Below, one piece after another: positions 25,388 through 49,695 of a stretch of DNA of 64,000 nucleotides; position 1 is the first letter of the stretch; the number at the start of each line of letters is the position of its first letter. The stretch is from the NCBI GenBank assembly GCA_027322285.1, contig DAHVRV010000001.1, positions 42,367 through 106,366 on the forward strand. The letters are read 5' to 3'. The notes beneath the pieces were generated by a model. The model was not told where the DNA came from. It did not search any database and was given only the letters and a program-made list of their open reading frames with translations. The position numbers and the translations under genes are program-made. The stretch comes from Actinomycetota bacterium (GTDB lineage: Bacteria > Actinomycetota > Acidimicrobiia > Acidimicrobiales > Acidimicrobiaceae).

Positions 25388-26464
25388 TCACACCTCATCT
25401 ACAAGGGTAACCTCGTTCGGCTCCTCCTTGCCCACTGCAGACACAACCGCTACGTTTTCGTCACCCGCGAAATCTGACACAGGTGAAGAAGCTGCCTGGG
25501 CTTTCTTCCATAACCTACTAAAAGCTCCTACAAGCCCCGACGGTAGAAGGCGGAGAATAACTATTAAAATAACCGCATAAACCCCTAGGGACAACACAGT
25601 GGGAAGTTGAGGAGGCAATGACGGGCTCGTTCCCAAAGATGTCAGCAGCTGCGATACCACAGTTATTAAGGCCGCACCGACAAAAGCCCCCGATACGGTT
25701 CCGATGCCGCCGACCACAACCATGATCACGAATTCGATAGAGAGAACGACTGGAAAGGCATCAGGCGATACGTAACCGATAAAGAAAACGTAGATTCCAC
25801 CAGCTATACCTGCAAATGCAGCGGATAGCGTGAAATCCTTCAATTTGTAGCGTTCCACCTCAACTCCGGTGGCAGAAGCCCCAGAAACACTGGCCGCCAT
25901 CGCCCGGAGTCCCCTGCCAGGCCGAGAGCGGGTTATATTTCTGGCGATGACCAGAGTGACCACGACGACAATCCATACCAAATATGCGTAATCTCGTCCC
26001 GAACTCATCGCCAAAGGTCCAATTCGAAGACTCGGAATAGCGCTCAGGCCAATGGAACCTCCGGTCAAAGAAGCGGTCTCTGGAATAACCGCGAGAAAGA
26101 TCAGCTGGACCGCAAGCGTGCCAAAAGCAAGCGCGTGACCTTTTAATCTAAGAAGTGGCAGACCAACGAGAAACGCCAAAAAAGCAGTGGCGATCGGCGC
26201 CACGATCAATGCCGCCAACGGAGACCAACCATGCAAGGCCAAAATTGCCGCAGTGTAGGATCCGACTCCATAAAAAGCGGCTTGCCCCAATGAGACTTGG
26301 CCGGCGAACCCCATCAGAAGCGACAATCCGGCTACCACGATGGTGTACAACCCTATTGTGACATAGATTTCAGTATTGGTAGAAGAAAGAAAAAGCGGGA
26401 GCGCGAGGGTAATCACACCTGCCGCCACAATCGCATAAATAGGGATTTTTCGACTCGCACGCAT
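25388..26464 (-). CDS. Branched-chain amino acid (HAAT family) ABC transporter permease, LivM-like
   Basis: The track ORF runs to 26506. ATG 26464 (MRASRKIPIY) lies 2 nt after the LivH-like stop. Polytopic, with the typical GQVSLGQAAFYGVGSY motif. Confidence 0.85.
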   Translation of the reverse strand: MRASRKIPIYAIVAAGVITLALPLFLSSTNTEIYVTIGLYTIVVAGLSLLMGFAGQVSLGQAAFYGVGSYTAAILALHGWSPLAALIVAPIATAFLAFLVGLPLLRLKGHALAFGTLAVQLIFLAVIPETASLTGGSIGLSAIPSLRIGPLAMSSGRDYAYLVWIVVVVTLVIARNITRSRPGRGLRAMAASVSGASATGVEVERYKLKDFTLSAAFAGIAGGIYVFFIGYVSPDAFPVVLSIEFVIMVVVGGIGTVSGAFVGAALITVVSQLLTSLGTSPSLPPQLPTVLSLGVYAVILIVILRLLPSGLVGAFSRLWKKAQAASSPVSDFAGDENVAVVSAVGKEEPNEVTLVDEV

Positions 26465-26466
26465 AC

Positions 26467-27321
26467 TCACTCCAAGCTTCCAACGGGCGCCCGCTTCGCT
26501 TGCCAAAGCAGAAGTACGATAAGTAGGGCCAGCGCTACGGCTGTCTCATTCGACGGTGACCAGTAACCGGCTACAAACTGCTCGGCAATACCAAATACAA
26601 GTCCTCCAACTACAGCCAACCCAGGACTGGTTAGTCCCCCTACGATTGCCGCTGCAAAACCCGTGATAGACAGCGAAACGTCTCCACTATAAGTAATTGG
26701 CGATAGAGGCGTCACCAGCACCCCACCGAGCCCGCCGAGCGCGCCACCAAGCGTGAATGCAATCAGACCCATTTTTTTCACGTTGATGCCAGATAGCCGG
26801 GCAGCGTAGGGATTGGATGCGCATGCACTCATGGCTTTCCCAAAATAGGTACGCCCAAATCCATAGAGCAGAGCAACAAAGACCACAAGGGAAACAATGA
26901 GGACTATAAGATACTGGCGCTGGATGAAGGCGCCAAAAATCACAAAATCGTGACCAGCGAGTCCCGAAAATGTTATGGGTATGGTGCCCCAAACCAGCAT
27001 GGCGATAGCTTCGCTAAGGATCGAAAGTCCGATGGTGATGACAAGTGACGCAAGCAACGGGACATCTCCGCCGATAGCAATAATCCCGAATACCAATCCG
27101 ATGAGAGCGGCGGCAAGAATCGCCAGTACTTCTGACACCCCGTGAGGCACTCCGGCGTTAAGGAGTGAGTACGCGATCAGTCCGCCGAATATTGCAAAGG
27201 CTCCCTGTGCGAAGTTGACCACTCGAGTGACCCGGTAGATTAGGACAAAACCCATAGCCAGCAGGGCAAAAACTAGCCCTCTCGCAACTCCGGTAAGCAA
27301 ATACTCTACAAATGCAGTCAT
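26467..27321 (-). CDS. HAAT family ABC transporter permease, LivH-like
   Basis: 284 aa. The LivH-type N-terminus (YLLTGVARGLVFALLAMGFVLIYRVTRVVNFAQG) is characteristic. Confidence 0.85.
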   Translation of the reverse strand: MTAFVEYLLTGVARGLVFALLAMGFVLIYRVTRVVNFAQGAFAIFGGLIAYSLLNAGVPHGVSEVLAILAAALIGLVFGIIAIGGDVPLLASLVITIGLSILSEAIAMLVWGTIPITFSGLAGHDFVIFGAFIQRQYLIVLIVSLVVFVALLYGFGRTYFGKAMSACASNPYAARLSGINVKKMGLIAFTLGGALGGLGGVLVTPLSPITYSGDVSLSITGFAAAIVGGLTSPGLAVVGGLVFGIAEQFVAGYWSPSNETAVALALLIVLLLWQAKRAPVGSLE

Positions 27322-27324
27322 CTG

Positions 27325-28038
27325 TTACCTTATGCCCCCAAGATAGGCAGCACGAACAGCTGGATTCCTAAGTAGATCAGATGAACGTCCTTCCAACCCG
27401 ATGTACCCATTTTCGATGACATAGGCTCTGGAAGTAATGTTCAGAGCCAACTGGGCATTCTGCTCAACCAACAGCACGGCTGTTCCATTCTGCTTGTTCA
27501 ACTCGACTAAATGTCTGGCAATATCCGAAACCACCAGTGGTGCCAGGCCTTGAGATAGTTCGTCAACAGCAATGACATCTGGATTTGCCATCAACGCCCG
27601 GCAGATTGCAACCATTTGCTGCTCCCCGCCCGATAAACTACCGGCACGACGCTTTCGCAACCTCTGAAGCTGTGGGAACAACTCGTACATTGGGGCGGTA
27701 TCTCTCGATCCTCCCCTGTAAGCACCGAGGCAAATGTTGTCATCTACTGTCAAATCGGGGAAGACCTGCCGTCCTTCTGGTACATGGGCCAGCTTTCCAT
27801 TACGCAATATCCGTCCGGAAGCAGGGCGGTTTATTCCTGACAGGGTATTGAGCAAAGTGGATTTGCCGGCACCGTTGGGACCAATAAGCGCCACCATTTC
27901 GCCCTTGGCGACATGGATACTCACTCCATGCAGCGCGACGACGGCACCATAGCGCACAACCAAGTCGACCGTAGCCAAAACACTGTCGCTGACAGCCAAC
28001 AAATCAGTGGACGGCGCGGTACTGTCAGTTGACTTCAT
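27325..28038 (-). CDS. HAAT family ABC transporter ATP-binding protein, LivF-like
   Basis: Walker A GPNGAGKST, signature LSGGEQQM, Walker B VIAVDELSQGLAP, C-terminal AYLG. Confidence 0.85.
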   Translation of the reverse strand: MKSTDSTAPSTDLLAVSDSVLATVDLVVRYGAVVALHGVSIHVAKGEMVALIGPNGAGKSTLLNTLSGINRPASGRILRNGKLAHVPEGRQVFPDLTVDDNICLGAYRGGSRDTAPMYELFPQLQRLRKRRAGSLSGGEQQMVAICRALMANPDVIAVDELSQGLAPLVVSDIARHLVELNKQNGTAVLLVEQNAQLALNITSRAYVIENGYIGLEGRSSDLLRNPAVRAAYLGGIR

Positions 28039-28825
28039 GGCTTATCGCAGTACCTAGGTAAGCGGATATGACCGCCGGATTCTCGCGGATCTCATCTGGG
28101 GTACCATCTGCTATCACTTGCCCCTGATCCAAAACACTGATCCTGGGTGCCACCTTGGTGACAAAATCTACGTCGTGTTCGATCAAAATCATCGTCAACG
28201 CATTTTCATGCAGCTTCTCTAACAGGGAAAGCAGCTCCCGTCGTTCATCTCCCCTGAGTCCCGAAGCAGGCTCATCCAACAGTAACAGCTTTGGCATGGA
28301 GCAAAGAGCGCGCGCGATCTGGAGCGCTCTTTGCCTACCCAACGGCAATGATTCCGCCAATTGATTCGCGTACCGTTCTAGGCCTACCATCGTTAAAGCC
28401 CATATTGCCTTGTCTCTAATGCCTCTCTCTTCATTCCGGCAACGCGGCAGACGTAAAGACGCCTCTAGCCATTCGTGCTTCGTCCAGGAATGACCTCCAA
28501 CCATGACATTCTCTAATACAGTCATGCCGCTAAATAGGTGTACCGCCTGAAATGTTATAGATATCCCCAACTTCGCTCGGGCGGCGGGGGACTTGTTCTC
28601 TATGCGATTGCCCTCAAAGACCAGACTGCCTCTATCGGGATAGAAATGACCACTGATCAGGTGAAATAGCGTGGATTTTCCAGCGCCATTGGGGCCGATC
28701 AGCCCGCGCAGTTCTCCTTCGGCAATACTAAAAGAAACGGAATTGACTGCTTGAACTCCTCCGAAGCTGAGGGTCAAATCTCGAGCTACTAAAAATTCGC
28801 CGGCCTCAGCCACCCCGCGCACCAC
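28025..28825 (-). CDS. HAAT family ABC transporter ATP-binding protein, LivG-like
   Basis: Walker A GPNGAGKST, Walker B LLLLDEPASGL, C-terminal ISAYLG. The signature position reads LPLGRQRAL. GTG start. Confidence 0.85.
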   Translation of the reverse strand: MVRGVAEAGEFLVARDLTLSFGGVQAVNSVSFSIAEGELRGLIGPNGAGKSTLFHLISGHFYPDRGSLVFEGNRIENKSPAARAKLGISITFQAVHLFSGMTVLENVMVGGHSWTKHEWLEASLRLPRCRNEERGIRDKAIWALTMVGLERYANQLAESLPLGRQRALQIARALCSMPKLLLLDEPASGLRGDERRELLSLLEKLHENALTMILIEHDVDFVTKVAPRISVLDQGQVIADGTPDEIRENPAVISAYLGTAISHEVN

Positions 28826-29600: not shown

Positions 29601-30902
29601 TCAGGGTGTCTTGGCAATCATGGCCTTGGTGAACGCTGTCGGAACCAAGGTCCCATTTACATCCCTTGCAATTGCAACCTGGTCGACACTCAACCCTGAG
29701 TGATCGGTAGGAGTGAAATTGTAGGTGCCATCGCCTGTCGTGATTGTCATATGATTCAGCGCGGTGTCCACACCTTGTGCCGTGGCACCATTGGAACCAA
29801 TTGCTTTGGCAATCATCGCTATTGCCCCGCCGGCATCAAAGCCGAATTCCGGAGGATAATACCCATTGTTCTTCTGGAAAGTATTCGCGAAGCCCGTGAT
29901 CACCGACCTACCCGGATAATTGGCAGGCAGATATGGTCCGATTCCTCCGATTGAACTTGCAATTATTACCCCGTTGCCGGCTGCACCAGCTGGCTTCGTG
30001 TAGAGAGTGGACGCTTCCGCATGACTAAATAGCAAAGGAATGGTAAGCCCGAGCGACTTAAACTGACTAGTCAACGCGACTTCGGCAGGACCAGCACCCC
30101 AAACCATTAGGCCTTGAGCGCCCGACGACTTTACGCCCGTGAGGACAGAGGTAAACGTAGTTGAGGTAGCAGAAAACGTTCCACTGTAGACGAAATTGAT
30201 GCCATAGTCGGAAGCCAATAATTTCATTTCGTTCCAACCAGCCTCACCAAAAGCGGTCGTGTCGTAGGCTACTGCCATTTTAGTTAGACCCTTGTACTTC
30301 ATGTATGCCAGCAACTGCTGACCAACTATCGAAGTCGTGGGCGGTGTCATAAAGACGTACGGCCTCACGGGAGTAACCTGAGAATCATCCGCACAAGTAT
30401 CGATCGCTGGTATCTTGGCTGCTTCGACATCGGAGATTATTGCCATGCACGCCGATGAAAAAACTGGTCCTACCATCGCTACGACGCCATCCGATTGTAG
30501 AGTCTTGAAGTCCACTACCGCCTGGGTCGGGTTGGTGGCATCATCCTCCACGATGAGATCTATCTTTCTCCCGCCAATTCCTCCGGCAGAATTAATGGCA
30601 TTCACCTCTTGCTCCGCACCAAGTTTGTCATTGGTGCCCAGCGGAGTGTATGGCCCGGTTAACGAAGTAATCATTCCAATCTTGATTGGTCCCTTGGCAG
30701 CAGCACTCTGCGCCGTAGTGCCAGCGCTTGAATTAGAGCTGGCGGTCGAACTCGCATTGGAGCTGGATCCGCAGGCAGCCAAAAGCAACGACGCCGAAGC
30801 AACTGCTATAGCCACAACGGCCGATTTCTGAGACCTCCTTCGCTTTGCACGAAAAAAACTTTCAAATAAGCCTCTATTTCCCCCGGAATGTTCACTCATC
30901 AT
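29601..30902 (-). CDS. ABC transporter substrate-binding lipoprotein, LivK/type-I periplasmic binding fold
   Basis: 433 aa. Signal peptide with lipobox LLLAAC, a Ser/Thr-rich linker, then IKIGMITSLTGPY...GAEQEVNAINSAGGIGGRKI, typical of Leu/Ile/Val-binding family proteins. Confidence 0.85.
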   Translation of the reverse strand: MMSEHSGGNRGLFESFFRAKRRRSQKSAVVAIAVASASLLLAACGSSSNASSTASSNSSAGTTAQSAAAKGPIKIGMITSLTGPYTPLGTNDKLGAEQEVNAINSAGGIGGRKIDLIVEDDATNPTQAVVDFKTLQSDGVVAMVGPVFSSACMAIISDVEAAKIPAIDTCADDSQVTPVRPYVFMTPPTTSIVGQQLLAYMKYKGLTKMAVAYDTTAFGEAGWNEMKLLASDYGINFVYSGTFSATSTTFTSVLTGVKSSGAQGLMVWGAGPAEVALTSQFKSLGLTIPLLFSHAEASTLYTKPAGAAGNGVIIASSIGGIGPYLPANYPGRSVITGFANTFQKNNGYYPPEFGFDAGGAIAMIAKAIGSNGATAQGVDTALNHMTITTGDGTYNFTPTDHSGLSVDQVAIARDVNGTLVPTAFTKAMIAKTP

Positions 30903-31191: not shown

Positions 31192-32541
31192 TCAACTCAC
31201 AAGGACCTTTCTTGTGTCCACCACGCGCTGAGACTTTCCACCCTCTGAGCGTGGCAACCTGTCCGGCTCAAGCAAAATCACCCGAGCTGAAATCCCGATA
31301 TTGTCGCGAATGGACCGCTGAGCTTCATCTCTAATGCTGCGTAGCAAATGATCTGCCTCAACTGCCTCGTCAGAGAGAAATTCGGTGGCTACGTCCTCAA
31401 AAGCTTCTTTTGACAACTCCGCCTCAACATCCAGCTGATCCAAAGTTCCTGAGCGGTCCACCAAAAGCCTGTAATACGGGGACAATCCCCTTACGCCGCC
31501 GATTGCCGCCTCGATCTGACTTGGGTAAACGTTTATCCCCTTGACAATCAGCATGTCATCGGTTCTTCCCTTGACCATTGCCATTTTCGCCAATGTGCGT
31601 CCGCAACTGCATTTGCCACGTTCAATGCTCGTGACATCTCCCGTCCAGTATCGAATGAGAGGAAGCGCCTCCTTGGTGAGAGTAGTAATCACCAGCACTC
31701 CCTCTTCTCCGTCAGGCAGCGGCATACCCGAATCAGGATCGACAATCTCAGCCAAGAAATGATCTTCGTTGATGTGAGACCCGTGACGTTCCTCGGTGCA
31801 TTCGAAAGACACACCTGGGCCAATGATTTCTGAAAGCCCGTAAATGTTGATGCTCCTCACTCCGAGACGAGAATCGATCTCAGCGCGCATCGTCTCAGTC
31901 CAAGGTTCTGCTCCCACAAGCGCAAACTTAAGAGGAATGTCTTTGGAATCAATCCCTTGCCTGGCAAACTCCCGGGCAATTGTAAGTGCATAACTGGGCG
32001 TGCAGCACAGTACCTCGGTGCCAAAGTCCATAATCAACCTGACCTGGCGTTCAGTCATCCCAGTCGAAGCTGGAACCACTACCATTCCCAGAGTTTCCCC
32101 TCCCTGATGGATGCCAAGTCCACCAGTAAACAGTCCGTACCCGTAGGCGTTGTGCAACAGCATTCCAGGCTCAGAACCGCCACCAGCAAGTGCTCTGGCG
32201 CACACCTTTCCGAATATGTCCAAATCGGCGGCCGTATAGCCCACTACCGTCGGTTTTCCCGTAGTTCCCGAAGACGCATGGATTCTCAACAGCTTGCTCT
32301 TGTCCGTTGTAAACAGACCAAAAGGGTAGGTATCTCGCAAGTCGGATTTTCGAGTAAATGGCAATCTCCACAAATCCGCGATCCCACTGATATCGCTGGG
32401 TTTGATCCCAACTCCCTGGAGCCGCTCCCTTATGTAGGGAACGCTTTCGTAAACTCTTGACACCATTTCGCGCAATCGAGCAGACTGTAATTCCTCCAGC
32501 GCACCGCGCTCCATCATTTCTATTTCAGGTTCAAATATCAC
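31192..32541 (-). CDS. Phenylacetate-CoA ligase family protein (PaaK-like aryl/acyl-CoA ligase)
   Basis: 449 aa. LPFTRKSDLRDTYPFGLF and HASSGTTGKPTVVGYT are the hallmark PaaK N-domain motifs. Confidence 0.85.
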   Translation of the reverse strand: MIFEPEIEMMERGALEELQSARLREMVSRVYESVPYIRERLQGVGIKPSDISGIADLWRLPFTRKSDLRDTYPFGLFTTDKSKLLRIHASSGTTGKPTVVGYTAADLDIFGKVCARALAGGGSEPGMLLHNAYGYGLFTGGLGIHQGGETLGMVVVPASTGMTERQVRLIMDFGTEVLCCTPSYALTIAREFARQGIDSKDIPLKFALVGAEPWTETMRAEIDSRLGVRSINIYGLSEIIGPGVSFECTEERHGSHINEDHFLAEIVDPDSGMPLPDGEEGVLVITTLTKEALPLIRYWTGDVTSIERGKCSCGRTLAKMAMVKGRTDDMLIVKGINVYPSQIEAAIGGVRGLSPYYRLLVDRSGTLDQLDVEAELSKEAFEDVATEFLSDEAVEADHLLRSIRDEAQRSIRDNIGISARVILLEPDRLPRSEGGKSQRVVDTRKVLVS

Positions 32542-33733
32542 CCTCGTACCCCCTATTCAATACTTGCGAAGCTCTAAGAAACGCTTTGCCTTCCATCAAT
32601 TTCCGTGCGGTCCTTGTATATGCCGCTTTTTCGACAACGGGATTTCCCGTCTCGTCGATGGATACCTTCGCCGCGACCACGTTGCAACCGGTTGGATGGC
32701 CGATACGAACCTCATCTGAAGTGGACGGACTCATCTGATATGCGATAGTTCCTGGAAGTCGAGCCGCCACTGCTACCGTCACGCCGGCCGTACCTGGAAA
32801 GGCTTTGTGCAAAACTAGAGGCTGCCCGCCAATAACTTCAGCAACAAAGTCGATATCATCGCTTTCTACACCTTGGTCACCGACGACGGTCTGATAGTTG
32901 TGGGCGTGGTCCAGCAACACAGGAATCGGCACTAACCCTCCTTCTGGAATGCCAAGCATTCTTGCTACTGCACGCTGCAGCGCATCTGATTTGGCTATTT
33001 GAACTTCGGAGGGAAAACAAGGAATTTCCCCCGGGTTAAATCCAGCATCAGACGCTCTGACTAATACGCATAAGTTAGCAATATCTACGATCGATACTGA
33101 AATCGTACCAATGAGAGGTACCTCAATTACGTCTATAACTGAACCGGTTGGCAATAACTTACCGGTAACAGATCCTACGGTTTCCCGATAATCGAGAACT
33201 ATCTCGGCCCCGGTGCCGGGAACTCCATCAACTCGGCAACTCCCTTCCACGGTTGGCCTTCCAAACGAAACCGGAACCGTGGCTGTAAAAATCTTGCGAG
33301 TATTTGTGTTATGGACTCTCACGGTGGTCAAAGGAGAGACCGGTTCAACATATCCATGCTCGATTGCGTATATACCGACGGCAGACGAGATATTGCCGCA
33401 GTTCATATCCATATTTACCTTTGCCTTAGCCACGCTTACCTGGGCAAAGGTATAGTCAAGATCCGCTCCTTCGACGCTTGGAGGTCCGATCATGGCAACT
33501 TTGCTGGTAAGCAAATCAGCACCGCCAAGCCCGTCTATCTGGCGCGGATCGGGGCTACCCATCGCAGCGAGCAAAAATGCCTCAAGCTCGGCCTGATCCT
33601 CCGGCAGTGCGGCTCTAGGAAGAAACACTCCCTTGGAAGTTCCTCCCCTGATGATCGAGCAGTCGACAGATATGAGTTCGCCCTCTTGAGAAATTAGTTC
33701 CGAGCTAACCCCAGTGGCAGACGTCATTTTCAT
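32531..33733 (-). CDS. PrpF/methylitaconate isomerase/4-oxalomesaconate tautomerase family protein
   Basis: The track ORF runs to 33757. ATG 33733 forms an ATGA overlap with the thiolase stop. IRGGTSKGVFL near the N-terminus and the length (about 400 aa) fit the PrpF family. Confidence 0.8.
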   Translation of the reverse strand: MKMTSATGVSSELISQEGELISVDCSIIRGGTSKGVFLPRAALPEDQAELEAFLLAAMGSPDPRQIDGLGGADLLTSKVAMIGPPSVEGADLDYTFAQVSVAKAKVNMDMNCGNISSAVGIYAIEHGYVEPVSPLTTVRVHNTNTRKIFTATVPVSFGRPTVEGSCRVDGVPGTGAEIVLDYRETVGSVTGKLLPTGSVIDVIEVPLIGTISVSIVDIANLCVLVRASDAGFNPGEIPCFPSEVQIAKSDALQRAVARMLGIPEGGLVPIPVLLDHAHNYQTVVGDQGVESDDIDFVAEVIGGQPLVLHKAFPGTAGVTVAVAARLPGTIAYQMSPSTSDEVRIGHPTGCNVVAAKVSIDETGNPVVEKAAYTRTARKLMEGKAFLRASQVLNRGYEGDI

Positions 33734-35412: not shown

Positions 35413-35426
35413 CTCCGCAAGAGCGC

Positions 35427-36173: not shown

Positions 36174-36182
36174 ATTTCATCA

Positions 36183-42156: not shown

Positions 42157-42162
42157 GACAAC

Positions 42163-44163
42163 CTACCCCCTTTGACCAGAATCATTGAGCGATGCCAAGC
42201 TTTCTGGAGCCTTGTGATTGCCGTTAGTCTCTGAGTCGGCGGACAGTATTGCGCCTTGCGGGCATATCTGAGCGCAAACCGTACATCCAGAGCACAGCGC
42301 AGCATCTATCGTTATGCGCTTCGGCATGACGTCAAGGCTAAAGTCCCAGCCAAGAGCAGGACAGCCAAGGTTCATGCATAACTGGCACCCATCGCATTGG
42401 TTTGTATCGATATGGTAGACCCGACCTCTGCTCTTTACCGGAGATTCGACACATGATCGGGCAGTAATCACTACCGATACCCCGTCTCTGGCTATCGCAT
42501 TCTGCAAGGCCATACTCGTAGCACCAACGTCATATGGATCAACCACAACAACCTGGCTCACTCCGACTGCGCTGCAGATGGCCGGTATGTCCACTTTGGG
42601 GGCTGACTGGCCTCGAATGCCGGATGACGTTGCAGGATGAGGTTGGCCACCCGTCATTGCCGTAGTCCCATTGTCGAGCACCACGACAGTGATGTTCGCT
42701 TCGCGGTGTACCGCGTCGATAAGGGGAGGGATTCCAGCATGCAGAAAGGTCGAATCTCCCAGCACCGCAACTACCGGTCGTCCTCCCGTTCTTCCAGCCT
42801 TGGCAAGCCCGATCGCAATGCCGATGCTGGATCCCATAGAAAGACATGTATCCATCGAAGCGAGCGGCTCAGTGGCTCCAAGGGTGTAGCACCCTATGTC
42901 ACCGGCTACCACAGCGTCGAACTTTCTTAGAAGAAAAAACGGCGTCGCGTGGGAGCATCCCGAACACAGCAGAGGAAATCGGGGACCTACCTCTGGGACC
43001 GAGTGGGTCCCGGCTGAAAGTGCCGGTTCCTCAGGAGTTTCGAGCACACCCGCCTTCTGAAAACCTTCACGAATCAGGCGAGGCGATAGCTCGCCATTGC
43101 GTGGAAATAATTCGGCACCCTCAGCGACCAAACCGAAGATGGCCATCTCGTCCTTGAGGTAGGGTTCGAGTTCCTCAACTACAAAAAGTCTGTCCACCTT
43201 GCTTGCAAAGCTTCTTAGTTTCTCCTTTGGAACCGGAAATGTGAGGCCGAGCTTCAAAACGCTAGCTTCAGGCAACACATCTCTAACGTACTGATAAGAA
43301 ATTCCCGACGTGACAACTCCGACCCGCGAAGAGCGCATCTCCTCTGAATTGAAGGAGACCTCCTCAGCCCACTGTTCCATCTTGGAGAGGCGGTTTAAAT
43401 GTGATACATGCCGCGCTCTGGCGTTTCCGGGAAGCATGACGTATTTGCGCTGATCACGATGAAACTCCCCTTTTCTGGGGCTTTGCATTGGCTTGGGGAT
43501 GACATTTGAGCGCGAGTGGGAAATCCGGGTCGTCATGCGCAGCATTACCGGCGTATCCCACTTTTCGCTAAGTTCAAACGCGGCCCTGGTAAACTCGTAG
43601 GCTTCCTGGCTGTCCGAGGGCTCCAGCATCGGAATGCCGGCAAAACGAGCAAGATAACGGTTATCTTGTTCGTTTTGCGAGCTATGCATACCAGGGTCGT
43701 CTGCGTCAAGGATCACCACCCCTCCATTGACACCGATAAAGGGACTCGTCATAAAAGAGTCCATAGCCACGTTCAAGCCGACGTGCTTGGTGGTCACCAA
43801 CACTCTGTCACCAGCCAGCGAAGCACCCATAGCCACGTCCATGGCTACTTTCTCGTTGGTTGACCACTCGACGTAGATATCGGAAGCCGACGTAATTTTG
43901 GCTAAATACTCCAGCGTCTCCGTGCTAGGGGTACCAGGGTATCCGACGGCCATGCCAGCCCCCGAGTGCCAGGTAGCCAACGCAATAGCCTCATTGCCAG
44001 AAAGCAGGCCCTCATAAAAACTTACATTTTTAGTGGATTCATGCTTTGCCGATTTTCCCGACAACTCAGCACCGCCCGAGTGTTGCTTTTCGACATCTTC
44101 GTGGCCATTTTTGGCCACCATGCCCGACTTCACTTCGATCGTGGCCACGACCTCTTTTTTCAT
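42163..44163 (-). CDS. iorA: Indolepyruvate:ferredoxin oxidoreductase alpha subunit
   Basis: 666 aa. POR-N-like domain (GYPGTPSTE), TPP domain (GDSTFLHAG...NGTTAMTGGQ) and its own C-terminal two-cluster ferredoxin module (CDGCQLCMNLGCP, CSGCTVCAQICP). Confidence 0.85.
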   Translation of the reverse strand: MKKEVVATIEVKSGMVAKNGHEDVEKQHSGGAELSGKSAKHESTKNVSFYEGLLSGNEAIALATWHSGAGMAVGYPGTPSTETLEYLAKITSASDIYVEWSTNEKVAMDVAMGASLAGDRVLVTTKHVGLNVAMDSFMTSPFIGVNGGVVILDADDPGMHSSQNEQDNRYLARFAGIPMLEPSDSQEAYEFTRAAFELSEKWDTPVMLRMTTRISHSRSNVIPKPMQSPRKGEFHRDQRKYVMLPGNARARHVSHLNRLSKMEQWAEEVSFNSEEMRSSRVGVVTSGISYQYVRDVLPEASVLKLGLTFPVPKEKLRSFASKVDRLFVVEELEPYLKDEMAIFGLVAEGAELFPRNGELSPRLIREGFQKAGVLETPEEPALSAGTHSVPEVGPRFPLLCSGCSHATPFFLLRKFDAVVAGDIGCYTLGATEPLASMDTCLSMGSSIGIAIGLAKAGRTGGRPVVAVLGDSTFLHAGIPPLIDAVHREANITVVVLDNGTTAMTGGQPHPATSSGIRGQSAPKVDIPAICSAVGVSQVVVVDPYDVGATSMALQNAIARDGVSVVITARSCVESPVKSRGRVYHIDTNQCDGCQLCMNLGCPALGWDFSLDVMPKRITIDAALCSGCTVCAQICPQGAILSADSETNGNHKAPESLASLNDSGQRG

Positions 44164-45482
44164 ACCAGTGTCTCCTCATGCTGGTTGGAGCTAACGTTCC
44201 CTGTTATAGAACTCAATGCGACATTTATTTCCTCGTCAGTCAAAACATGCATAGATTGCTTTGCCGCATTCAACATTGCAGTCACAAGATCTGGAGACTC
44301 TCCATAACCATGTTGGCGGAGCCAGAACAACGCATTCCATTTCCCGCTCATCGGACCAACCAAAATTCGTTGCTCCCTTCCTACAAGCCCGGCAGGAATA
44401 GACGAATAGATGCGATCAGCAAGCCAGGCTTCACCTTTTTCATACGCTTTGGCTACCGCCGCAGCATGAACCCCCGTACTTGTGGCAAAAGCGTCATCTC
44501 CCACAACGGGGTAGTTCCTCACGATTGGGAAACCAGTCATTTCGCTTGCCAAACTGCAATAGGCCGGCAACATTGTCAGATCAGCATCCATCCAGCCTTT
44601 GAGGACTAAGTTGACTACCAAAGTATCCATCGACGTATTGCCAACCCGCTCGCCAACTCCCAGCGCACAGCCATGCACTCTTGTAGCGCCCGCGGAAAGT
44701 GCAGCAATGTTGTTGATGAGATCGAGTCCGCGATCACGGTGACCGTGAAAATCGATCTCAATCGCCGGAAAACCGATGTCATCCAATTCTTTGCGAATAA
44801 ATCGGATTAGATGTTGTACGCCAACCGGAGTAGCCGAGCCAACCGTGTCTGAAATGCACACGCGACTCGCTCCAGCTTCTGCGGCGGCGCGATAGAGTTG
44901 CGCAAGATCCTCCGGGCGTGCCCTAGTGGTATCTTCGGTTACAAACATGACTTCAAGACCATGGTTTACGGCGTAGCTGACCGCTTTAGCGGCAGTCTTG
45001 ACCATATCTTTCATGTCCCATCCCTCGACAAGCTGTCTAATCGGGCTGGACCCAAGAAACATCGTTGACTCAATTAGCAGTCCCGAACGCTGGCTCGCTT
45101 CTATCACTGGATCTATATCGGCGATGTGTGTGCGTCCCGCACAATTGGGGGCTATTGACAGATTCTCGGACCGAATTGTCTCTGCCAGCGATATCACATC
45201 CTCGAGCACGGCCGCGCTTGCGCCTGCATATCCGATGTTTGCAGAATGAATTCCCAGGGAAGGCATGAGACGCAGGAAGTCTCGTTTTTGGGCCAGTGTC
45301 GGCTGCAGACAAGATGGGGATTGCAGTCCATCTCGAAGGGTTTCATCATTTAGAATTATCTTTTCCGGCTGTTCAAACGAGCAAATTGGAGCGCCGATCA
45401 GATCCCAATCGAAAATAAGTCCCGAATAACTTGGATTCCCCCCCTTGGGAGGCCGAGATACTGACTTCTTGTTTTCTTGCAT
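44160..45482 (-). CDS. LeuA/homocitrate synthase/HMG-CoA-lyase-like (DRE-TIM metallolyase) family protein
   Basis: The track ORF is open from GTG 45653. ATG 45482 (MQENKK) follows the strong SD AAAGGAGGAG. NDETLRDGLQSP, the HGHRDRG metal site and the length (about 440 aa) fit the family. ATGA overlap with iorA. Substrates unknown. Confidence 0.75.
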   Translation of the reverse strand: MQENKKSVSRPPKGGNPSYSGLIFDWDLIGAPICSFEQPEKIILNDETLRDGLQSPSCLQPTLAQKRDFLRLMPSLGIHSANIGYAGASAAVLEDVISLAETIRSENLSIAPNCAGRTHIADIDPVIEASQRSGLLIESTMFLGSSPIRQLVEGWDMKDMVKTAAKAVSYAVNHGLEVMFVTEDTTRARPEDLAQLYRAAAEAGASRVCISDTVGSATPVGVQHLIRFIRKELDDIGFPAIEIDFHGHRDRGLDLINNIAALSAGATRVHGCALGVGERVGNTSMDTLVVNLVLKGWMDADLTMLPAYCSLASEMTGFPIVRNYPVVGDDAFATSTGVHAAAVAKAYEKGEAWLADRIYSSIPAGLVGREQRILVGPMSGKWNALFWLRQHGYGESPDLVTAMLNAAKQSMHVLTDEEINVALSSITGNVSSNQHEETLV

Positions 45483-45729: not shown

Positions 45730-45759
45730 ATTATATCCATAGACTGACCAGTCAGTCAA
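45730..45759 (-). promoter_or_regulatory. Sigma70-like promoter (TTGACT-18 nt-TATAAT) overlapped by a perfect 16-bp palindrome GACTGAC-TG-GTCAGTC; candidate TetR operator
   Basis: The minus strand reads TTGACTGACTGGTCAGTCTATGGATATAAT. The palindrome covers 45742-45757. The same geometry recurs at 48529-48558. Confidence 0.55.
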
Positions 45760-46342
45760 TTTAAGATCGAGATTTTTTTGGTCAAGCCTTGCCGCGCCAG
45801 GTCCACCCTTTAAATGACTGGCAGGCTAACCCTTCGGCTAATCACCAGCAAGAACCGCCGCAGTCCAATACAACAATGCGTTATTCGCCGCACATTGACA
45901 CGAATATCAAGTCCGCAGTTCATTTAGACCAATTTTCCGCTTACCAAAAAACGATATGGCCCTCCCTGAATGGCTCTAAGGAGACGCTAAAGCTGACGTT
46001 GCCGGCAAATATCCCGTTGCCTCTAGGGATCAAGCTAGGCTCGTCACGGTCTGGGTAATTTCCGAAAAGGCATCTTTGGCCCGTGTCTTCGGCTCCCAAG
46101 AAATACTCATAGTCAAAGAAAATGGCTGGAGCGCTAATGGGATGAGGTGCTCATGTTGCCTTGATCATGGCGCCATGCGCGGCGAATAGTCGGACGGGCA
46201 TGAGCCGATCCCGGCTCTGCGGATATATTTACTGCTGGCAGCGCTACGTTGGATTGCCCTCAGACAGTTAGGCCCTGCTGGCTTCAGCTGGGATATTCGA
46301 AACTCAGGACAGCAGGTGCATTGCACCGGCCGCCCTGATGGG

Positions 46343-46870
46343 TTAGTCGTCTTGTGCCTGCTCTGCACCTATCAAGGAAAGCATGGGCTCAATGCCGCCA
46401 TGTCGGAGCACGTCAATCATCGGTTCTGGAATGCTGTCGGCATCCAAAGTTGTGTTGCGCGCCGAAATGCTGACACGACCAGATATCACATCCACATCGA
46501 TGATATCGCCATCTTCAACCACTTCGGATAAAGTTGGACATGCGATAGCCACCAGCCCAATCGCAATAGCATTTCTCGCGAATATCCTTGCCAAGGAGTC
46601 GGCAACCACCGCTGCCACGCCGAGATCTTTCAAATGCTGCGGCGCTGACTCTCGAGATGAACCGCATCCAAAGTTAGGTCCAGCCACGACAATATCTCCA
46701 GGGCGCACCTGACTCGCAAACTCCGGGCGAGCTGACTCCAGCACATGCTTTAGGCGCTCCTCCATTGGATGATGGACGTACTGCCCTGGCGAGAGCATGT
46801 CGGTCGAGATATCAGACCCAAACAACCACGCCCTACCCTGAATTTTAGCCAAATCGTTATTCATCGCCAT
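46343..46870 (-). CDS. Aconitase-superfamily dehydratase small subunit, LeuD type 2-like
   Basis: 175 aa. GPNFGCGSSRESAP motif and short archaeal-type LeuD/HacB length. Confidence 0.85.
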   Translation of the reverse strand: MAMNNDLAKIQGRAWLFGSDISTDMLSPGQYVHHPMEERLKHVLESARPEFASQVRPGDIVVAGPNFGCGSSRESAPQHLKDLGVAAVVADSLARIFARNAIAIGLVAIACPTLSEVVEDGDIIDVDVISGRVSISARNTTLDADSIPEPMIDVLRHGGIEPMLSLIGAEQAQDD

Positions 46871-46873
46871 CTC

Positions 46874-48256
46874 TTATCTCCCGGAACTGCTTATCGAGGC
46901 GCCAGCAGGCGCGTTGCTCGACCCGTCCATGATCTCGCGGGGATCCGCTATTACACCTGCCAATGCCGAGGCAGCTGCCGTCAGAGGAGAGCCGAGATAG
47001 ATCTCGGCCTCTCCCGAACCCATCCTGCCCTGAAAGTTGCGGTTATGGGTGCCCAAACATCGTTCGCCCGGAGCTAAAAGACCCATATGACCACCAAAAC
47101 AAGGACCGCATCCAGGACCGCCAACGTAGGCGCCCGCAGCGACGAGATCCTCGATGATTCCTTCTTCAGCTGCTGCCGCCATGACAGTGGCGGACGCTGG
47201 AGTCACAATCAATCTCACACCTTTGGCAATGTGCTTGCCCCTTAGAACATCTGCTGCAAGTCGAAGATCTCCCAATCTGCCGTTGGTGCAGGATCCTATG
47301 AATACCTGGTCCAAAGGCACTCCGACTACGTCACCAACGTCGACGACATTTTCCACGTGATGAGGAACAGCAACCTGTGGCACCAACTTATCCAGTGAAA
47401 CATTGTGGCTTGCAAAATACCTTGCATCCTGCCTTAGCGTGGTTATGGGCCCTTCCGGAAAGATGGTGAACTTTGCTCCCATCTCCACTCCCATATTTGC
47501 AACCGTCATACGATCAGCCAAATCCAGTTTGCCGACGCTTGGGCCGCCAAACTCCACCGAACGGTACTGTGCCTCTGACGAGCCCACGACTTTCATCAAG
47601 TTCAAAATCAAGTCCTTGGCCGTCACTCCAAGTTGGAATTCTCCATCCAAGACAATCGCTATGCTCTCTGGAACCCTGAACCAGAGCTTGCCTGTTGCCA
47701 GAGAGTAGGCCATTTCTGTGCTGCCAATGCCGGACGATGCTACGCCCAAAGCACCATACGTGGTCGTATGCGAGTCGGTGCCAATGACAAGTTGTCCAGG
47801 CGCCACTCTATTTTCCTCGACCATAACCTGATGACAAATGCCTCGTCCGATTTCAAAAAAGGCATCTATCCCGTAATACTTGACAAGTTCCCGGGCTTTG
47901 GCTTGATGCGCGGAAGACGAGACCGATGGCGACGGCACCATATGGTCAAATACAACTGTCACTTTCGATGGATCGTTCAATCGCCGGATTCCAGCTCTTT
48001 GCAACATAGATAAGACGTCAGCAGCGAAGATGTCATGCATCATCATCGCGTCAACCTCAGCTATCACATATTCTCCCGGATTCACCCGATCCCTGCCACT
48101 AGCCCGAGCTAAAATCTCCTCAGCTACTGTTTGTTGACCAGACTGAGGCACACTACTCTTCGCTGCATTATTGATATCAGTAAAGCTCACCGCGTCCTCC
48201 ACTTTGTAACCAGCTTTGCCACCGATCTGCGCTTCTTTCCTGTGCGACTTTTTCAT
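46874..48256 (-). CDS. Aconitase-superfamily dehydratase large subunit, LeuC/HacA-like
   Basis: 460 aa. DSHTTT, GSCTNGR and the CGPCFG cluster-ligand regions. The family normally starts near TVAEEILARASG, so a GTG at 48151 is an alternative start. Confidence 0.85.
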   Translation of the reverse strand: MKKSHRKEAQIGGKAGYKVEDAVSFTDINNAAKSSVPQSGQQTVAEEILARASGRDRVNPGEYVIAEVDAMMMHDIFAADVLSMLQRAGIRRLNDPSKVTVVFDHMVPSPSVSSSAHQAKARELVKYYGIDAFFEIGRGICHQVMVEENRVAPGQLVIGTDSHTTTYGALGVASSGIGSTEMAYSLATGKLWFRVPESIAIVLDGEFQLGVTAKDLILNLMKVVGSSEAQYRSVEFGGPSVGKLDLADRMTVANMGVEMGAKFTIFPEGPITTLRQDARYFASHNVSLDKLVPQVAVPHHVENVVDVGDVVGVPLDQVFIGSCTNGRLGDLRLAADVLRGKHIAKGVRLIVTPASATVMAAAAEEGIIEDLVAAGAYVGGPGCGPCFGGHMGLLAPGERCLGTHNRNFQGRMGSGEAEIYLGSPLTAAASALAGVIADPREIMDGSSNAPAGASISSSGR

Positions 48257-48528
48257 TCATTTATGTCAGTCAGATTGCCTTCCAACCGGCAAAACACCTA
48301 TACCGGCCGACATCGCATATCGCACACTGTCTAAAGCGGCAAATTCCATCGATGCCTAAGAAATAGCTCCAACCAGCCTGCAATTTTTGCCGTCTCCCCC
48401 TCCTTGCACAAAACTCTTCTCTGCAGCTGGTATTGACCTTCGGCAATCGCGTGGAGTCCTGCTATCCAACAGAAAGCAGAACGCATCCAATCGACAACTG
48501 CACAGCAATACAGAAAAGCGATTGGGCT

Positions 48529-48558
48529 ATTCTAGGTACTGTCTGACCGGTTAGTCAA
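48529..48558 (-). promoter_or_regulatory. Sigma70-like promoter (TTGACT-18 nt-TAGAAT) overlapped by the operator-like 16-mer GACTAAC-CG-GTCAGAC
   Basis: The minus strand reads TTGACTAACCGGTCAGACAGTACCTAGAAT. The 16-mer (48541-48556) matches the 45742-45757 palindrome at 13 of 16 positions and sits in the same register relative to -35 and -10. Confidence 0.5.
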
Positions 48559-48972
48559 ACCTTCACAAAAGATTGCCCGCTAGCAATAGGAACTCTTGAA
48601 ATTGTCGAGAGCCAGGATTGTCCTTGAGCTCCATCCAGGCTTCAGCGAGTCTCGATTTTTTACAAATTTCGAGCTTTGGCTGAAAATTCAAGCGCGGCCA
48701 AGCTTTCCATTAAGACTGCGGGACTTTATACCATTCCAGCAAAATACCTAGCCATCCTTATTCTCCCGGCCGGGTGAGAACCTTGAACGCATCTCGCCCC
48801 ACTTTCCTTGGGCGCTCTGCGTGGCATCCATTCGTTGAGCATTTCCCCGATCTGGTCGCTGACCGGAAGCAGGCTCGAATCAGTCGGCAGCGTCCGTTCC
48901 CGCAATGCGAACCTCGTCGGTATGGCAGCACGTCAGCCGCCACAAGGCAACAAGCACTTCGCAGGCAAAGAA

Positions 48973-49695
48973 TTATCCAGTCTCGTGAATGACCGCTCTG
49001 CCAGATTCAGCACTTGTCTCAGTTGTTGCCGAACCTGAGCGTTGAAGTCCTCCGCCTTCGACCTCGCCCGTTAGGTAGGTCAAGACTGCCGCCAAACAAG
49101 CCTCTTTGTACCATGCATGAAGACGCTTCCAATCTTCCTCTTGAAGCCACTGGATGTAAAGCCCCTCAATAATGGCTCGGATGACTGTAGCAGCCTCGGC
49201 TATGTCTCTTACCTTGAACGTCTTTCTTTCATAACCGTCTTTGATGACCTCTGCATAAATCGCATTCACGGTTGATCTGAATGTCGCGCTCAAATGGCCA
49301 AATGAGTCAGAACTTGCAGCATGGCCTATCAACCCAATATAAGTCAGGTAGAAACGTCTATTTTGCAATGGATCGCTAAAGATCGTGTCGATCATTAGCC
49401 GGATTCTATTCTCGGGCTCATTGACGCGGGAAACTGAGGCTCGGATCCTTTCAGCAATCTGATTTAGAACCCAGCGCATAACCGTAAGAACAAGGTTTTC
49501 TTTGCTCTTGAAGTAGTAGAGCAGTACGCTTTTGCTTACTTCCGCCGCATCGGCAATATCTTGCAGCGGAACACGATAAACGCCTTTTTCGCCCATAACC
49601 CGATAGGCACTTCTAATTATGTGTATTTCCGGAGCGGAGTGATCTTCATGCAGCAGATTCTTGCGTTCCTGTGGAGGTTGAACGGATTCGATCAT
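48973..49695 (-). CDS. TetR/AcrR family transcriptional regulator
   Basis: 240 aa. HTH segment VPLQDIADAAEVSKSVLLYYFKSKENLV followed by a helical ligand domain. Confidence 0.85.
   Translation of the reverse strand: MIESVQPPQERKNLLHEDHSAPEIHIIRSAYRVMGEKGVYRVPLQDIADAAEVSKSVLLYYFKSKENLVLTVMRWVLNQIAERIRASVSRVNEPENRIRLMIDTIFSDPLQNRRFYLTYIGLIGHAASSDSFGHLSATFRSTVNAIYAEVIKDGYERKTFKVRDIAEAATVIRAIIEGLYIQWLQEEDWKRLHAWYKEACLAAVLTYLTGEVEGGGLQRSGSATTETSAESGRAVIHETG

Follow-up and report, generated by a model that had tools for sequence, protein, structure and literature searches.

A conserved gene cluster from an Acidimicrobiaceae genome that may encode a benzylmalate route from arylpyruvates to aroyl-CoA

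Gene content of the cluster

We analyzed a window of 64 kb, meaning the whole 64,000-nucleotide stretch of contig DAHVRV010000001.1 from an Actinomycetota bacterium of the family Acidimicrobiaceae (assembly GCA_027322285.1), and focused on the gene cluster at 25388-49695 (Table 1). Coordinates are positions in this window, family calls come from Pfam and NCBIfam scans, and homologs were ranked by the bit scores of sequence matches to PDB entries. The original prediction described 20 co-directional minus-strand genes plus a TetR gene, which agrees with both the listing of open reading frames (ORFs) and the profile scans; the TetR gene is transcribed from the same strand as the other 20. The order is TetR, LeuC-like, LeuD-like, HMGL/LeuA-like, IorA, IorB fused to a 2x[4Fe-4S] domain, the alpha, beta, and gamma subunits of a second 2-oxoacid:ferredoxin oxidoreductase (OFOR), family III CoA-transferase, crotonase, short-chain dehydrogenase/reductase (SDR), DUF35, SCP-x thiolase, PrpF family, PaaK-like, LivK-type, LivG, LivF, LivH, and LivM. 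The families assigned earlier were all correct when each ORF was scanned with Pfam and NCBIfam profiles. It had also been noted that an acyl-CoA dehydrogenase (ACAD) and a LeuB-type dehydrogenase are missing, and indeed 0 of the 21 products matched the ACAD or isocitrate/isopropylmalate dehydrogenase families. Proteins identical to those of the cluster occur on contigs of the metagenome-assembled genomes (MAGs) GCA_021785315.1 and GCA_027412235.1 and on ENA assemblies, and the nearest named relatives are Actinomycetota MAGs.

The first enzymes in the cluster resemble those of 2-oxoacid elongation. The LeuA-like protein fell below every NCBIfam cutoff (best model, 193 bits versus 517), has no LeuA_dimer regulatory domain in the Pfam and NCBIfam scans, and gave its best PDB matches, at about 120 bits, with homocitrate synthase (6ktq) and isopropylmalate synthase (3rmj). 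It retains the metal and substrate motifs LRDGxQ and HxH. A role as an HMG-CoA or citramalyl-CoA lyase was rejected, given that the lyase model scored 29 bits compared to 193 for the synthase models. Five positions are substrate selective in this family, and they read A73/D157/A159/M186/S242 in HphA, H/R/T/S/H in homocitrate synthase, and L/E/S/N/E in isopropylmalate synthase (PMC12961565). The LeuA-like protein reads A/M/V/C/H at these positions in the HMMER alignment to 6KTQ, where the residues of 6KTQ itself reproduce the published H/R/T/S/H and therefore validate the mapping. The gatekeeper position is Ala, as is A73 of the phenylpyruvate enzyme HphA; apart from this residue the pocket is hydrophobic, and the cluster orthologs keep all five residues. 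Leucine biosynthesis was rejected as the function given the lack of LeuB, scores far under the cutoff, different pocket residues, and a catabolic synteny.

The LeuC-like protein passed the cutoff of the NCBIfam archaeal-type isopropylmalate isomerase (IPMI)/homoaconitase subfamily (509 bits versus 385), and its best PDB match was the IPMI of M. jannaschii (392 bits; homoaconitase, 336). The LeuD-like protein was likewise closest to the M. jannaschii IPMI (3vba, 141 bits; homoaconitase, 108). Its substrate loop reads YVHH, without the Arg that recognizes the distal carboxylate in homoaconitase. The PrpF-like protein gave its best PDB match with 3-methylitaconate Δ-isomerase (Mii; 3g7k, 279 bits), followed by LigU (197) and PrpF (170), and its Lys (in TSKVA) and Cys (in NCGNIS), which we take to be the catalytic pair, are invariant in 13 orthologs. 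In metagenome loci that have no Bbs-like module (L115, L117, L120, L123, L126, L133, L147, L149, L154, L157, and L172, with L numbers denoting loci here and below), PrpF-family genes of lower similarity (38-45% identity) very frequently adjoin LeuCD-like genes, and such a dehydratase-isomerase pair is a recurring unit in other, uncharacterized contexts.

Downstream of the LeuCD-like and LeuA-like genes lies a set of genes resembling the Bbs module of anaerobic toluene catabolism. The best NCBIfam models for the CoA-transferase were the succinate-glutarate and succinyl-CoA:mesaconate CoA-transferases, families that depend on succinyl-CoA and act on (branched, unsaturated) dicarboxylates; its best PDB match was SUGCT (9br7, 253 bits), with BbsF at 148 bits and BbsE at 117. 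The SDR, of which this cluster has one gene and L014 two adjacent ones, had BbsD as its top PDB match (7pcs_B, 256 bits, residues 1-246 on 1-246), a similarity only; over 200 other SDRs, most of them reductases of the FabG type, ranked lower, and the (3R)-hydroxyacyl-CoA dehydrogenase 2et6 scored 230 bits and FabG-type enzymes at most 214. The sole NCBIfam match of the DUF35 protein was the BbsA model (50 bits versus a cutoff of 250), and its best PDB match was 6esq_E (44 bits), followed by BbsA 7pxp_A (40 bits). The best PDB match of the thiolase was BbsB (7pxp_C, 269 bits; other SCP2 thiolases, at most 231), and it scored 286 bits against the NCBIfam BbsB model, whose cutoff is 750.

Between the LeuA-like and CoA-transferase genes stand those for indolepyruvate:ferredoxin oxidoreductase (IOR) and a second OFOR. 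The IorB protein scored 170 bits against the IorB model (cutoff, 237) and carries an extra ferredoxin domain, a fusion that is kept in all orthologous loci. The second OFOR had been called a four-subunit type. A second oxidoreductase is present, but it has only three genes (alpha, beta, and gamma), and the delta-type ferredoxin is the C terminus of IorB, encoded directly upstream. The second OFOR always accompanies IOR, and the fused ferredoxin domain links both. A Pad-type phenylglyoxylate oxidoreductase was rejected given that partner genes are absent and the equivalog cutoffs were missed (PadG, PadI, and PadE, 81, 43, and 45 bits versus 700, 700, and 300; Pad matches overall, 28-81 bits). 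The best PDB matches of the ligase were PaaK enzymes (PaaK1/PaaK2; 2y4o, 429 bits; 2y27, 407 bits). A substrate-binding protein of the same family as that of the window follows the cluster in L008 and L014.

Table 1. Features of the cluster in the 64-kb window, in the direction of transcription
Feature	Coordinates	Strand	Match or site	Proposed role
TetR-family regulator	48973..49695	-	TetR_N + TetR_C_6	Candidate repressor of the cluster
Promoter-like site upstream of the LeuC-like gene	48529..48558	-	Operator-like TTGACTAACCGGTCAG over the -35 hexamer and spacer	
LeuC-like aconitase-family dehydratase, large subunit	46874..48256	-	PF00330	Proposed 2-benzylmalate dehydratase
LeuD/DmdB-family small subunit	46343..46870	-	TIGR02087, 161 bits vs cutoff 109 (passed)	
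Promoter-like site upstream of the LeuA-like gene	45730..45759	-	11/12 matches; perfect palindrome GACTGACTGGTCAGTC	
LeuA/homocitrate-synthase-like Claisen condensing enzyme	44160..45482	-	PF00682 only	Proposed synthase, arylpyruvate + acetyl-CoA to 2-benzylmalate
IorA, indolepyruvate:ferredoxin oxidoreductase alpha	42163..44163	-	TIGR03336, 667 bits vs cutoff 651 (passed)	
IorB fused to C-terminal 2x[4Fe-4S] delta-type ferredoxin domain	41107..42126	-	POR + Fer4; IorB and PorD/KorD models	
OFOR alpha	39932..41110	-	PRK08659, 516 bits vs cutoff 411 (passed)	
OFOR beta (thiamine pyrophosphate-binding)	38946..39869	-	Best model 2-oxoglutarate:ferredoxin oxidoreductase beta, 251 bits (below cutoff)	
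OFOR gamma	38263..38946	-	Pfam/NCBIfam	
Family III CoA-transferase	37068..38279	-	PF02515, 407 bits	Proposed succinyl-CoA:phenylitaconate CoA-transferase
Crotonase (enoyl-CoA hydratase)	36183..36965	-	PF00378	Proposed BbsH-like role
SDR	35427..36173	-	adh_short families	Proposed 2-(alpha-hydroxybenzyl)succinyl-CoA dehydrogenase
DUF35 (zinc ribbon + OB fold)	34972..35487	-	Pfam	BbsA-like thiolase partner (putative)
SCP-x type thiolase	33730..34872	-	Thiolase_N + Thiolase_C_1	Proposed benzoylsuccinyl-CoA thiolase
PrpF-family Δ-isomerase	32531..33733	-	PF04303	Proposed benzylmaleate to phenylitaconate isomerase
PaaK-like arylacetate-CoA ligase	31192..32541	-	TIGR02155, 550 bits vs cutoff 646 (below)	
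LivK-type lipoprotein, substrate-binding protein	29601..30899	-	Peripla_BP_6	
LivG, LivF, LivH, and LivM-like ABC transporter (two ATPases, two permeases)	25388..28813	-	ABC_tran, BPD_transp_2	

Transcription units, conservation, and genomic context

The run of genes is several transcription units and not a single operon, given its large intergenic gaps (716, 860, 292, and 787 nt) and the promoter-like sites upstream of LeuC and HMGL. Within the units, the ATGA or short overlaps pointed out in the original prediction are seen as ATGA or TGATG at HMGL/IorA, IorB/OFOR alpha, OFOR beta/gamma, and thiolase/PrpF. The most likely start of the LeuA-like gene is 45482 (440 aa), as called on the identical public contigs, rather than 45653, and that of DUF35 is probably an internal Met near 35412, giving about 146 aa. 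The intergenic gaps of the run contain no ORF of at least 90 aa, an Rfam scan of 25-51 kb for RNA elements gave no match at E values up to 0.1, and a tRNA scan detected no tRNA. The 860-nt stretch between the LeuD-like and LeuA-like genes (45483-46342) has neither an ORF of more than 90 aa nor an Rfam match. In relatives, this interval is 77 nt long in L010 and holds hcrCAB, a ligase, a Pat-like protein, and a Usp gene in L089, and the gap in the window may be the scar of a lost insert.

An operator-like sequence connects these units. The site upstream of the LeuC-like gene (TTGACTAACCGGTCAG) shares 14 specified bases with the palindromic site upstream of HMGL (GACTGACTGGTCAGTC), and in the promoter-like sites of the LeuC-like and LeuA-like genes alike, TTGACTNACNGGTCAG spans the -35 hexamer and the spacer. 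Upstream of LivG, at 29182-29197, there is another operator-like site, which is weaker. Given these shared sites, the LeuCD-like unit, the LeuA-to-PaaK unit, and the transporter probably form one regulon, as judged from the sequence. Exact matches to TTGACTNACNGGTCAG in the 2.29 Mb of fetched loci were confined to the homologous spot in L001 and L007 and to L096; by chance, about 0.017 matches would be expected across all of these loci. Similar but inexact sites precede HMGL in L010 and L089 and LivG in L008. In L096, which is an Armatimonadota locus, the match falls between the stop of the PrpF-like gene and the start of a BcrC-like gene, so that the same motif precedes ring-reduction genes in another phylum. 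The TetR protein of L096, encoded beside the cluster and genes resembling those of benzoyl-CoA reductase (BCR), is 51% identical to that of the window.

The original prediction had raised the prospect that these genes might be scattered in related genomes; a neighborhood search found them together. The search used the CoA-transferase as the query with one genome per species, and a metagenome scan and searches for proteins homologous to the LeuA-like and PrpF-like ones led to more loci. CoA-transferase orthologs of at least 55% identity occurred in only 9 species-level genomes, all 9 of which carry the core cluster genes (LeuA-like, LeuCD-like, PrpF-like, CoA-transferase, crotonase, SDR, DUF35, and thiolase). 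The control consisted of 71 fetched loci with weaker CoA-transferase homologs (at most 45%), and none of the 14 scanned by tblastn had the core genes. About 25 loci have the core, labeled as Actinomycetota, Acidimicrobiia, Chloroflexota, Armatimonadota, and Sulfobacillus-like Bacillota, and they span several phyla that are mostly uncultured. The order is colinear in the window, L010, and L012, and the genes form divergent arms in L013, L015, L106, L108, L111, L177, and L178; these last seven and L014, L089, L091, L093-L098, and L100 are further core-bearing loci with other orders or flanks. A transporter of the NMT1 type (ABC) interrupts the cluster in L095 and L096, and flanks are unrelated between loci (e.g., Lpt genes in L098). 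That the core is kept through shuffled orders and unrelated flanks indicates selection for co-location. No ACAD or LeuB gene lies inside any orthologous cluster; L091 has an ACAD in a separate neighboring gene group upstream. IorA, the IorB-ferredoxin fusion, and OFOR alpha, beta, and gamma travel as a five-gene block, which is absent from L015, L108, and L177 and relocated beside a PaaK-like gene in the closed Acidimicrobiia MAG genome CP129495.1 (L178). The contig of L015 (CAXMOL010000087.1) is labeled as a Kiloniellaceae MAG. The closest relatives of its PrpF-like protein share 75-97% identity with it, and the named ones all come from Acidimicrobiia MAGs; the label is likely a binning error for Acidimicrobiia or reflects a recent transfer.

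Genes of anaerobic aromatic metabolism recur beside the cluster in related loci. Genes resembling those of 4-hydroxybenzoyl-CoA reductase (Hcr), a molybdenum enzyme of three subunits, adjoin it in 8 loci. They follow the PrpF-like gene directly, in the order C-A-B, in L015, L108, L111, L177, and L178; in L100 and L101 the C subunit alone is visible before the contig ends, and in L089 three Hcr-like genes follow LeuCD. The L015 proteins scored 861 bits against the HcrA model (cutoff, 995; XdhA, 515) and 283 bits against the HcrB model (cutoff, 405), and the HcrB model aligns with the beta subunit in one stretch, whereas the XdhB models split at residues 116-156. The beta subunits of L015 and L089, the two loci examined for this feature, contain a Cys-rich insertion (C-x15-C-x7-C-x8-C) that is presumably the loop binding the extra [4Fe-4S] cluster peculiar to HcrB. 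For the lower benzoyl-CoA pathway, L015 also encodes proteins that passed the Had (424 bits versus 339) and Oah (563 versus 464) cutoffs, along with a Dch-like gene, and the same position in L177 is occupied by a pair of genes for a zinc-dependent alcohol dehydrogenase and an Oah-like protein. Four co-directional genes come after the PrpF-like gene in L096, with BcrC, BcrB, BcrA/Q, and BcrD as their best models (329 and 220 bits versus 202 and 113 for hydroxyisocaproyl-CoA dehydratase), an arrangement that we take to be the Thauera gene order; a partial BcrAD-family gene is found upstream in L091. Benzoate-CoA ligase family genes that pass the TIGR02262 cutoff stand beside the cluster in L014, L091, and L094, and L089 has a 4-hydroxybenzoate-AMP-ligase-like gene. 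Other genes also occur in these neighborhoods. A 4HBT-family hotdog thioesterase lies beside the Hcr-like genes in L015 (1103-1456) and L178 (14959-15399), and L091 and L096 each have an Amidohydro_2 gene close to the cluster or to the BCR-like genes. In L094, whose contig has a Sulfobacillus benefaciens MAG as its nearest named relative, a thioredoxin-reductase-like flavoprotein (12656-13666, 336 aa) is encoded just past the cluster, between an MFS transporter and the benzoate-CoA ligase family gene, and it may be an electron supplier of the ferredoxin-NADP reductase type.

The flanks of the cluster within the window are unrelated to it, with housekeeping genes and a plus-strand amine-utilization cluster on the left and RidA-like, DnaE2, TetR plus ABC-2 exporter, and ImuB genes on the right, and they gave no clue to the substrate. 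The plus-strand cluster (15145-24969) encodes an amino-acid permease, a GntR/FCD regulator, a class-II GATase, a GXGXG protein, a glutamate-synthase-like FMN domain, a glutamine-synthetase-like protein, a DAO-family FAD oxidoreductase, and an aldehyde dehydrogenase, and presumably resembles gamma-glutamyl-amine or N-methylglutamate-type amine utilization clusters. Divergent from the TetR gene of the cluster is a plus-strand RidA/L-PSP family gene (50310-50885), whose product could deaminate imino acids to 2-oxoacids. A minus-strand mutagenesis cassette with DnaE2 (1055 aa), ImuB-like, and ImuA'-like genes (51724-61718) is interrupted by a TetR gene and by genes for the two ATPases and the permease of an ABC-2 exporter (55907-59254).

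A proposed benzylmalate route and its alternatives

From the observed gene content, homologies, synteny, and operator-like sites we infer a catabolic "benzylmalate" route, its substrates, and each of its steps: arylpyruvates, and arylacetates through them, would be converted to aroyl-CoA and succinate. Both kinds of substrate arise in the breakdown of phenylalanine and tyrosine. We consider this reading of the sequence moderately probable. In the proposed scheme, the ABC system would import an aromatic acid, which the PaaK-like ligase would convert to arylacetyl-CoA, and IOR would reductively carboxylate this thioester to the arylpyruvate with electrons from the second OFOR passing via the ferredoxin domain fused to IorB. 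We likewise infer in which direction IOR runs and what the second oxidoreductase does. The role of the latter, which is the most speculative part of the scheme, would be to feed the carboxylation with low-potential electrons and perhaps also with acetyl-CoA or succinyl-CoA. There is a precedent in Thauera, where a 2-oxoglutarate:ferredoxin oxidoreductase serves BCR. The LeuA-like enzyme would then condense the arylpyruvate with acetyl-CoA to 2-benzylmalate (the HphA reaction) in an irreversible step that sets the direction. The LeuCD-like enzyme would dehydrate 2-benzylmalate to 2-benzylmaleate, a half-reaction as in dimethylmalate dehydratase, and the Mii-like PrpF-family enzyme would shift the double bond into conjugation with the ring, giving (E)-phenylitaconate (benzylidenesuccinate) through a 1,3-proton shift as in the conversion of dimethylmaleate to methylitaconate. 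The family III CoA-transferase and succinyl-CoA would yield phenylitaconyl-CoA, the product of BbsG in toluene catabolism, which the crotonase, the BbsD-like SDR, and the BbsAB-like DUF35/thiolase would convert to benzoyl-CoA or 4-hydroxybenzoyl-CoA and succinyl-CoA. The predicted net reaction is arylpyruvate + acetyl-CoA + NAD+ -> aroyl-CoA + succinate + NADH. In loci that lack IOR, OFOR, and PaaK, the arylpyruvate could enter by transamination of Tyr or Phe, and Hcr could then dehydroxylate 4-hydroxybenzoyl-CoA.

Neither a BbsG-type ACAD nor LeuB would be needed in this route because the entry steps would install the double bond. The original prediction had already suggested that a dehydratase/isomerase pair supplies the double bond and feeds a Bbs-like CoA module, which is supported by the likeness of the isomerase to Mii, of the thiolase to BbsB, and of the SDR to BbsD and by the co-location of the genes across phyla. 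Its list of substrates included aromatic and alkyl compounds, and we now favor the aromatic option. It had also held that the direction could not be decided from the sequence. LeuA-type condensation with thioester hydrolysis is effectively irreversible, and because of this and of the neighbors in other genomes that consume (4-hydroxy)benzoyl-CoA, a catabolic direction can be argued.

Several observations weigh against the benzylmalate route. The 64-kb window contains no ring-reduction (Hcr, BCR, or Had/Oah) genes, and the aromatic assignment for the window organism rests on relatives, in which the Hcr and BCR matches, like the BbsB and other Bbs matches, fall under their NCBIfam equivalog cutoffs. 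The CoA-transferase is nearer to SUGCT than to BbsEF, and the crotonase is uninformative, with only generic NCBIfam matches and none specific to BbsH. Nor does the binding protein inform on the ligand, given that a PDB search with it does not separate amino-acid binders from aromatic-acid binders. PaaK is absent from the IOR-bearing loci L010, L094, L096, L098, and L111, where IOR may run oxidatively or another ligase may serve, and the close relative L009 shows only the segment from CoA-transferase to thiolase. The substrate loop of LeuD varies among orthologs, and we dropped it as a diagnostic of the substrate for this reason. Stand-alone paralogs of the LeuA-like protein in L087 and L092 (about 65% identical) carry the same five selectivity residues, so that the synthase subfamily is not exclusive to the cluster and does not mark it. 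The two loci lie on contigs of P0059 and P0048, for which the nearest named relatives are MAGs of Ktedonobacteraceae.

The same chemistry could also act on aliphatic substrates, with a beta-methylene 2-oxoacid and acetyl-CoA giving a shorter acyl-CoA and succinyl-CoA and with the oxidoreductases carboxylating acyl-CoAs; 2-oxoisocaproate (from leucine or isovalerate) and 2-oxobutyrate (from propionate) would be candidates. The transporter is of the LivK/LivGFHM type, the second OFOR is generic (its best models are of the 2-oxoglutarate or 2-oxoisovalerate type), the LeuA-like pocket is hydrophobic and need not fit an aromatic ring, and the window has no aromatic-ring genes, all of which would suit such substrates. 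We nevertheless regard this alternative as unlikely, considering that IorA scores above its equivalog cutoff and the ligase is PaaK-like, that Hcr-like, BCR-like, Had/Oah, and benzoate-CoA ligase family genes recur beside the cluster, that BbsB and BbsD are the best structural-database matches, and that the gatekeeper residue is the Ala of HphA. It is quite improbable that the genes are independent units that merely adjoin, in which IOR, OFOR, and PaaK would interconvert arylacetates and amino acids, LeuA and LeuCD would serve amino-acid biosynthesis, the Bbs-like set would act on another CoA ester, and the transporter would import branched-chain amino acids. The large gaps and separate promoter-like sites do imply at least four units, the IOR and OFOR block is missing or relocated in four loci (L015, L108, and L177; L178), and stand-alone LeuA-like paralogs exist. 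However, the LeuA-like, LeuCD-like, PrpF-like, and Bbs-like genes stay linked through rearrangements, in several phyla and between unrelated flanks, LeuB is absent and the LeuA-like protein lies far under every LeuA cutoff, and an identical operator-like site precedes the LeuCD and LeuA-like operons.

A variant of a known PrpF-family pathway, namely nicotinate fermentation (Mii plus DmdAB), the methylcitrate pathway (AcnD plus PrpF), or 4,5-cleavage of gallate or protocatechuate (GalD/LigU), is very improbable in our view. Mii is the best PDB match and GalD the best NCBIfam match (283 bits), and pairs of PrpF-like and LeuCD-like genes at 38-45% identity are common in metagenome loci. Every equivalog cutoff was missed, however (GalD, 283 bits versus 440; PrpF TIGR02334, 190 versus 440; the AcnD model, 64 versus 1420), the window lacks 2-methyleneglutarate mutase, dimethylmalate lyase, methylcitrate synthase, a ring-cleavage dioxygenase, and LigI/J/K, and a Bbs-like module has no role in these pathways. 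The AcnD/PrpF and GalD/LigU pathways were rejected on the missed cutoffs and absent partner genes. We attach very little probability to a biosynthetic or reverse direction, in which benzoyl-CoA and succinyl-CoA would be joined and processed to phenylitaconate and then to products of the benzylmalate or homophenylalanine type, much as in the route engineered from a reversed Bbs pathway. A LeuA-type synthase cannot reverse its reaction starting from free benzylmalate, the cluster also encodes an uptake transporter and a CoA ligase, and the neighbors in other genomes are ring-reduction genes; there are also no LeuB/HphB, aminotransferase, nonribosomal peptide synthetase, or other natural-product genes. 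In its favor, the Bbs steps are reported to be reversible (PMC10818641), and enzymes of the HphA/HphCD type make homophenylalanine (PMC12961565). A 2026 paper on anaerobic benzene degradation proposed a route from phenylpyruvate via phenyllactyl-CoA and cinnamoyl-CoA to benzoyl-CoA with other genes (PMC13416013), and we rejected this route as the identity of the cluster given that the genes are different.

Significance and comparison with known systems

Benzoyl-CoA is the hub of anaerobic aromatic metabolism, and to our knowledge the routes so far characterized that lead to it from phenylacetate, phenylalanine, and tyrosine depend on a molybdenum enzyme described in nitrate reducers. We put forward, tentatively, the broader possibility of a widespread "benzylmalate pathway" that oxidizes the side chain of arylpyruvates or arylacetates to aroyl-CoA without oxygen, molybdenum-dependent alpha-oxidation, or a glycyl-radical enzyme and that salvages succinate. 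In its full form, the ferredoxin-wired OFOR pair would be a redox-neutral carboxyl-exchange device, with one enzyme oxidizing a 2-oxoacid such as pyruvate or 2-oxoglutarate and the other spending the electrons on carboxylating arylacetyl-CoA. Literature searches found no published description of a catabolic benzylmalate/phenylitaconate route. If the proposal is true, it would represent a new peripheral pathway, a Bbs-like module fed by a LeuA/LeuCD/Mii-type entry, and would explain what a conserved set of genes does in lineages labeled as Actinomycetota, Acidimicrobiia, Chloroflexota, Armatimonadota, and Sulfobacillus-like Bacillota. The pathway would in addition be a source of enzymes for benzylmalate, phenylitaconate, and benzylsuccinate chemistry. 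A MAG study reads such bbsA genes as toluene-degradation potential, for example in Acidimicrobiia (PMC12008989), and the route would explain "orphan" bbs-like genes in MAGs that are now taken in this way. Each proposed step is directly testable with obtainable substrates.

The cluster shares with the Bbs pathway of anaerobic toluene degradation a family III CoA-transferase, a crotonase, a BbsD-like SDR, and a DUF35/thiolase pair that matches BbsAB best, as well as the predicted products, aroyl-CoA and succinyl-CoA, the latter recycled as the CoA donor. It differs in having no BbsG acyl-CoA dehydrogenase, with phenylitaconate proposed to come from the synthase/dehydratase/isomerase trio instead, in having a single CoA-transferase gene nearer to SUGCT or mesaconate transferases in place of the two-subunit BbsEF, and in usually having one SDR rather than the BbsC/BbsD pair. 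No glycyl-radical benzylsuccinate synthase (BssABC) was found in the window or in the Pfam-annotated neighborhoods of the orthologous loci. With the Mii/DmdAB system of nicotinate fermentation in Eubacterium barkeri, the cluster shares a PrpF-family enzyme for a 1,3-proton shift on a substituted maleate/itaconate, for which Mii is the best structure match, paired with a LeuCD-like enzyme that does the hydration/dehydration half-reaction only. Here the order would be reversed, with dehydration followed by isomerization, the proposed substituent is benzyl rather than methyl, and the product would enter CoA-dependent beta-oxidation; the window has no gene for a B12 mutase (2-methyleneglutarate mutase) or an isocitrate-lyase family enzyme (dimethylmalate lyase).

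Leu/Hph chain elongation likewise uses a LeuA-family Claisen enzyme and a two-subunit aconitase-type dehydratase, and the cluster enzyme has Ala at the position of HphA A73 and the same predicted first product, 2-benzylmalate. In contrast to those systems, the cluster has no LeuB/HphB or LeuA_dimer, its synthase lies far under the LeuA, CimA, and HCS (homocitrate synthase) cutoffs, the context is catabolic, and the dehydration product is proposed to be diverted by the isomerase rather than rehydrated. The alpha-oxidation of phenylacetate in Thauera/Aromatoleum (PadEFGHI) resembles the proposed route in its overall conversion of arylacetyl-CoA to aroyl-CoA, with a net loss of reducing equivalents equal to one carbon's worth, in its first enzyme, a PaaK-type ligase, and in its (4-hydroxy)benzoyl-CoA product with Hcr downstream; the cluster, however, has no molybdenum phenylacetyl-CoA dehydrogenase, and the side chain would be rebuilt into succinate instead of being oxidized to CO2. 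The arylacetate assimilation of anaerobes and methanogens also combines an IorAB-type enzyme with an arylacetate-CoA ligase, with reductive carboxylation to the arylpyruvate proposed here as well, whereas in the cluster IorB is fused to ferredoxin and belongs to a five-gene block with a second OFOR inside a catabolic cluster. Collectively, known chemistry and known enzyme families would be assembled here into a pathway that is apparently undescribed.

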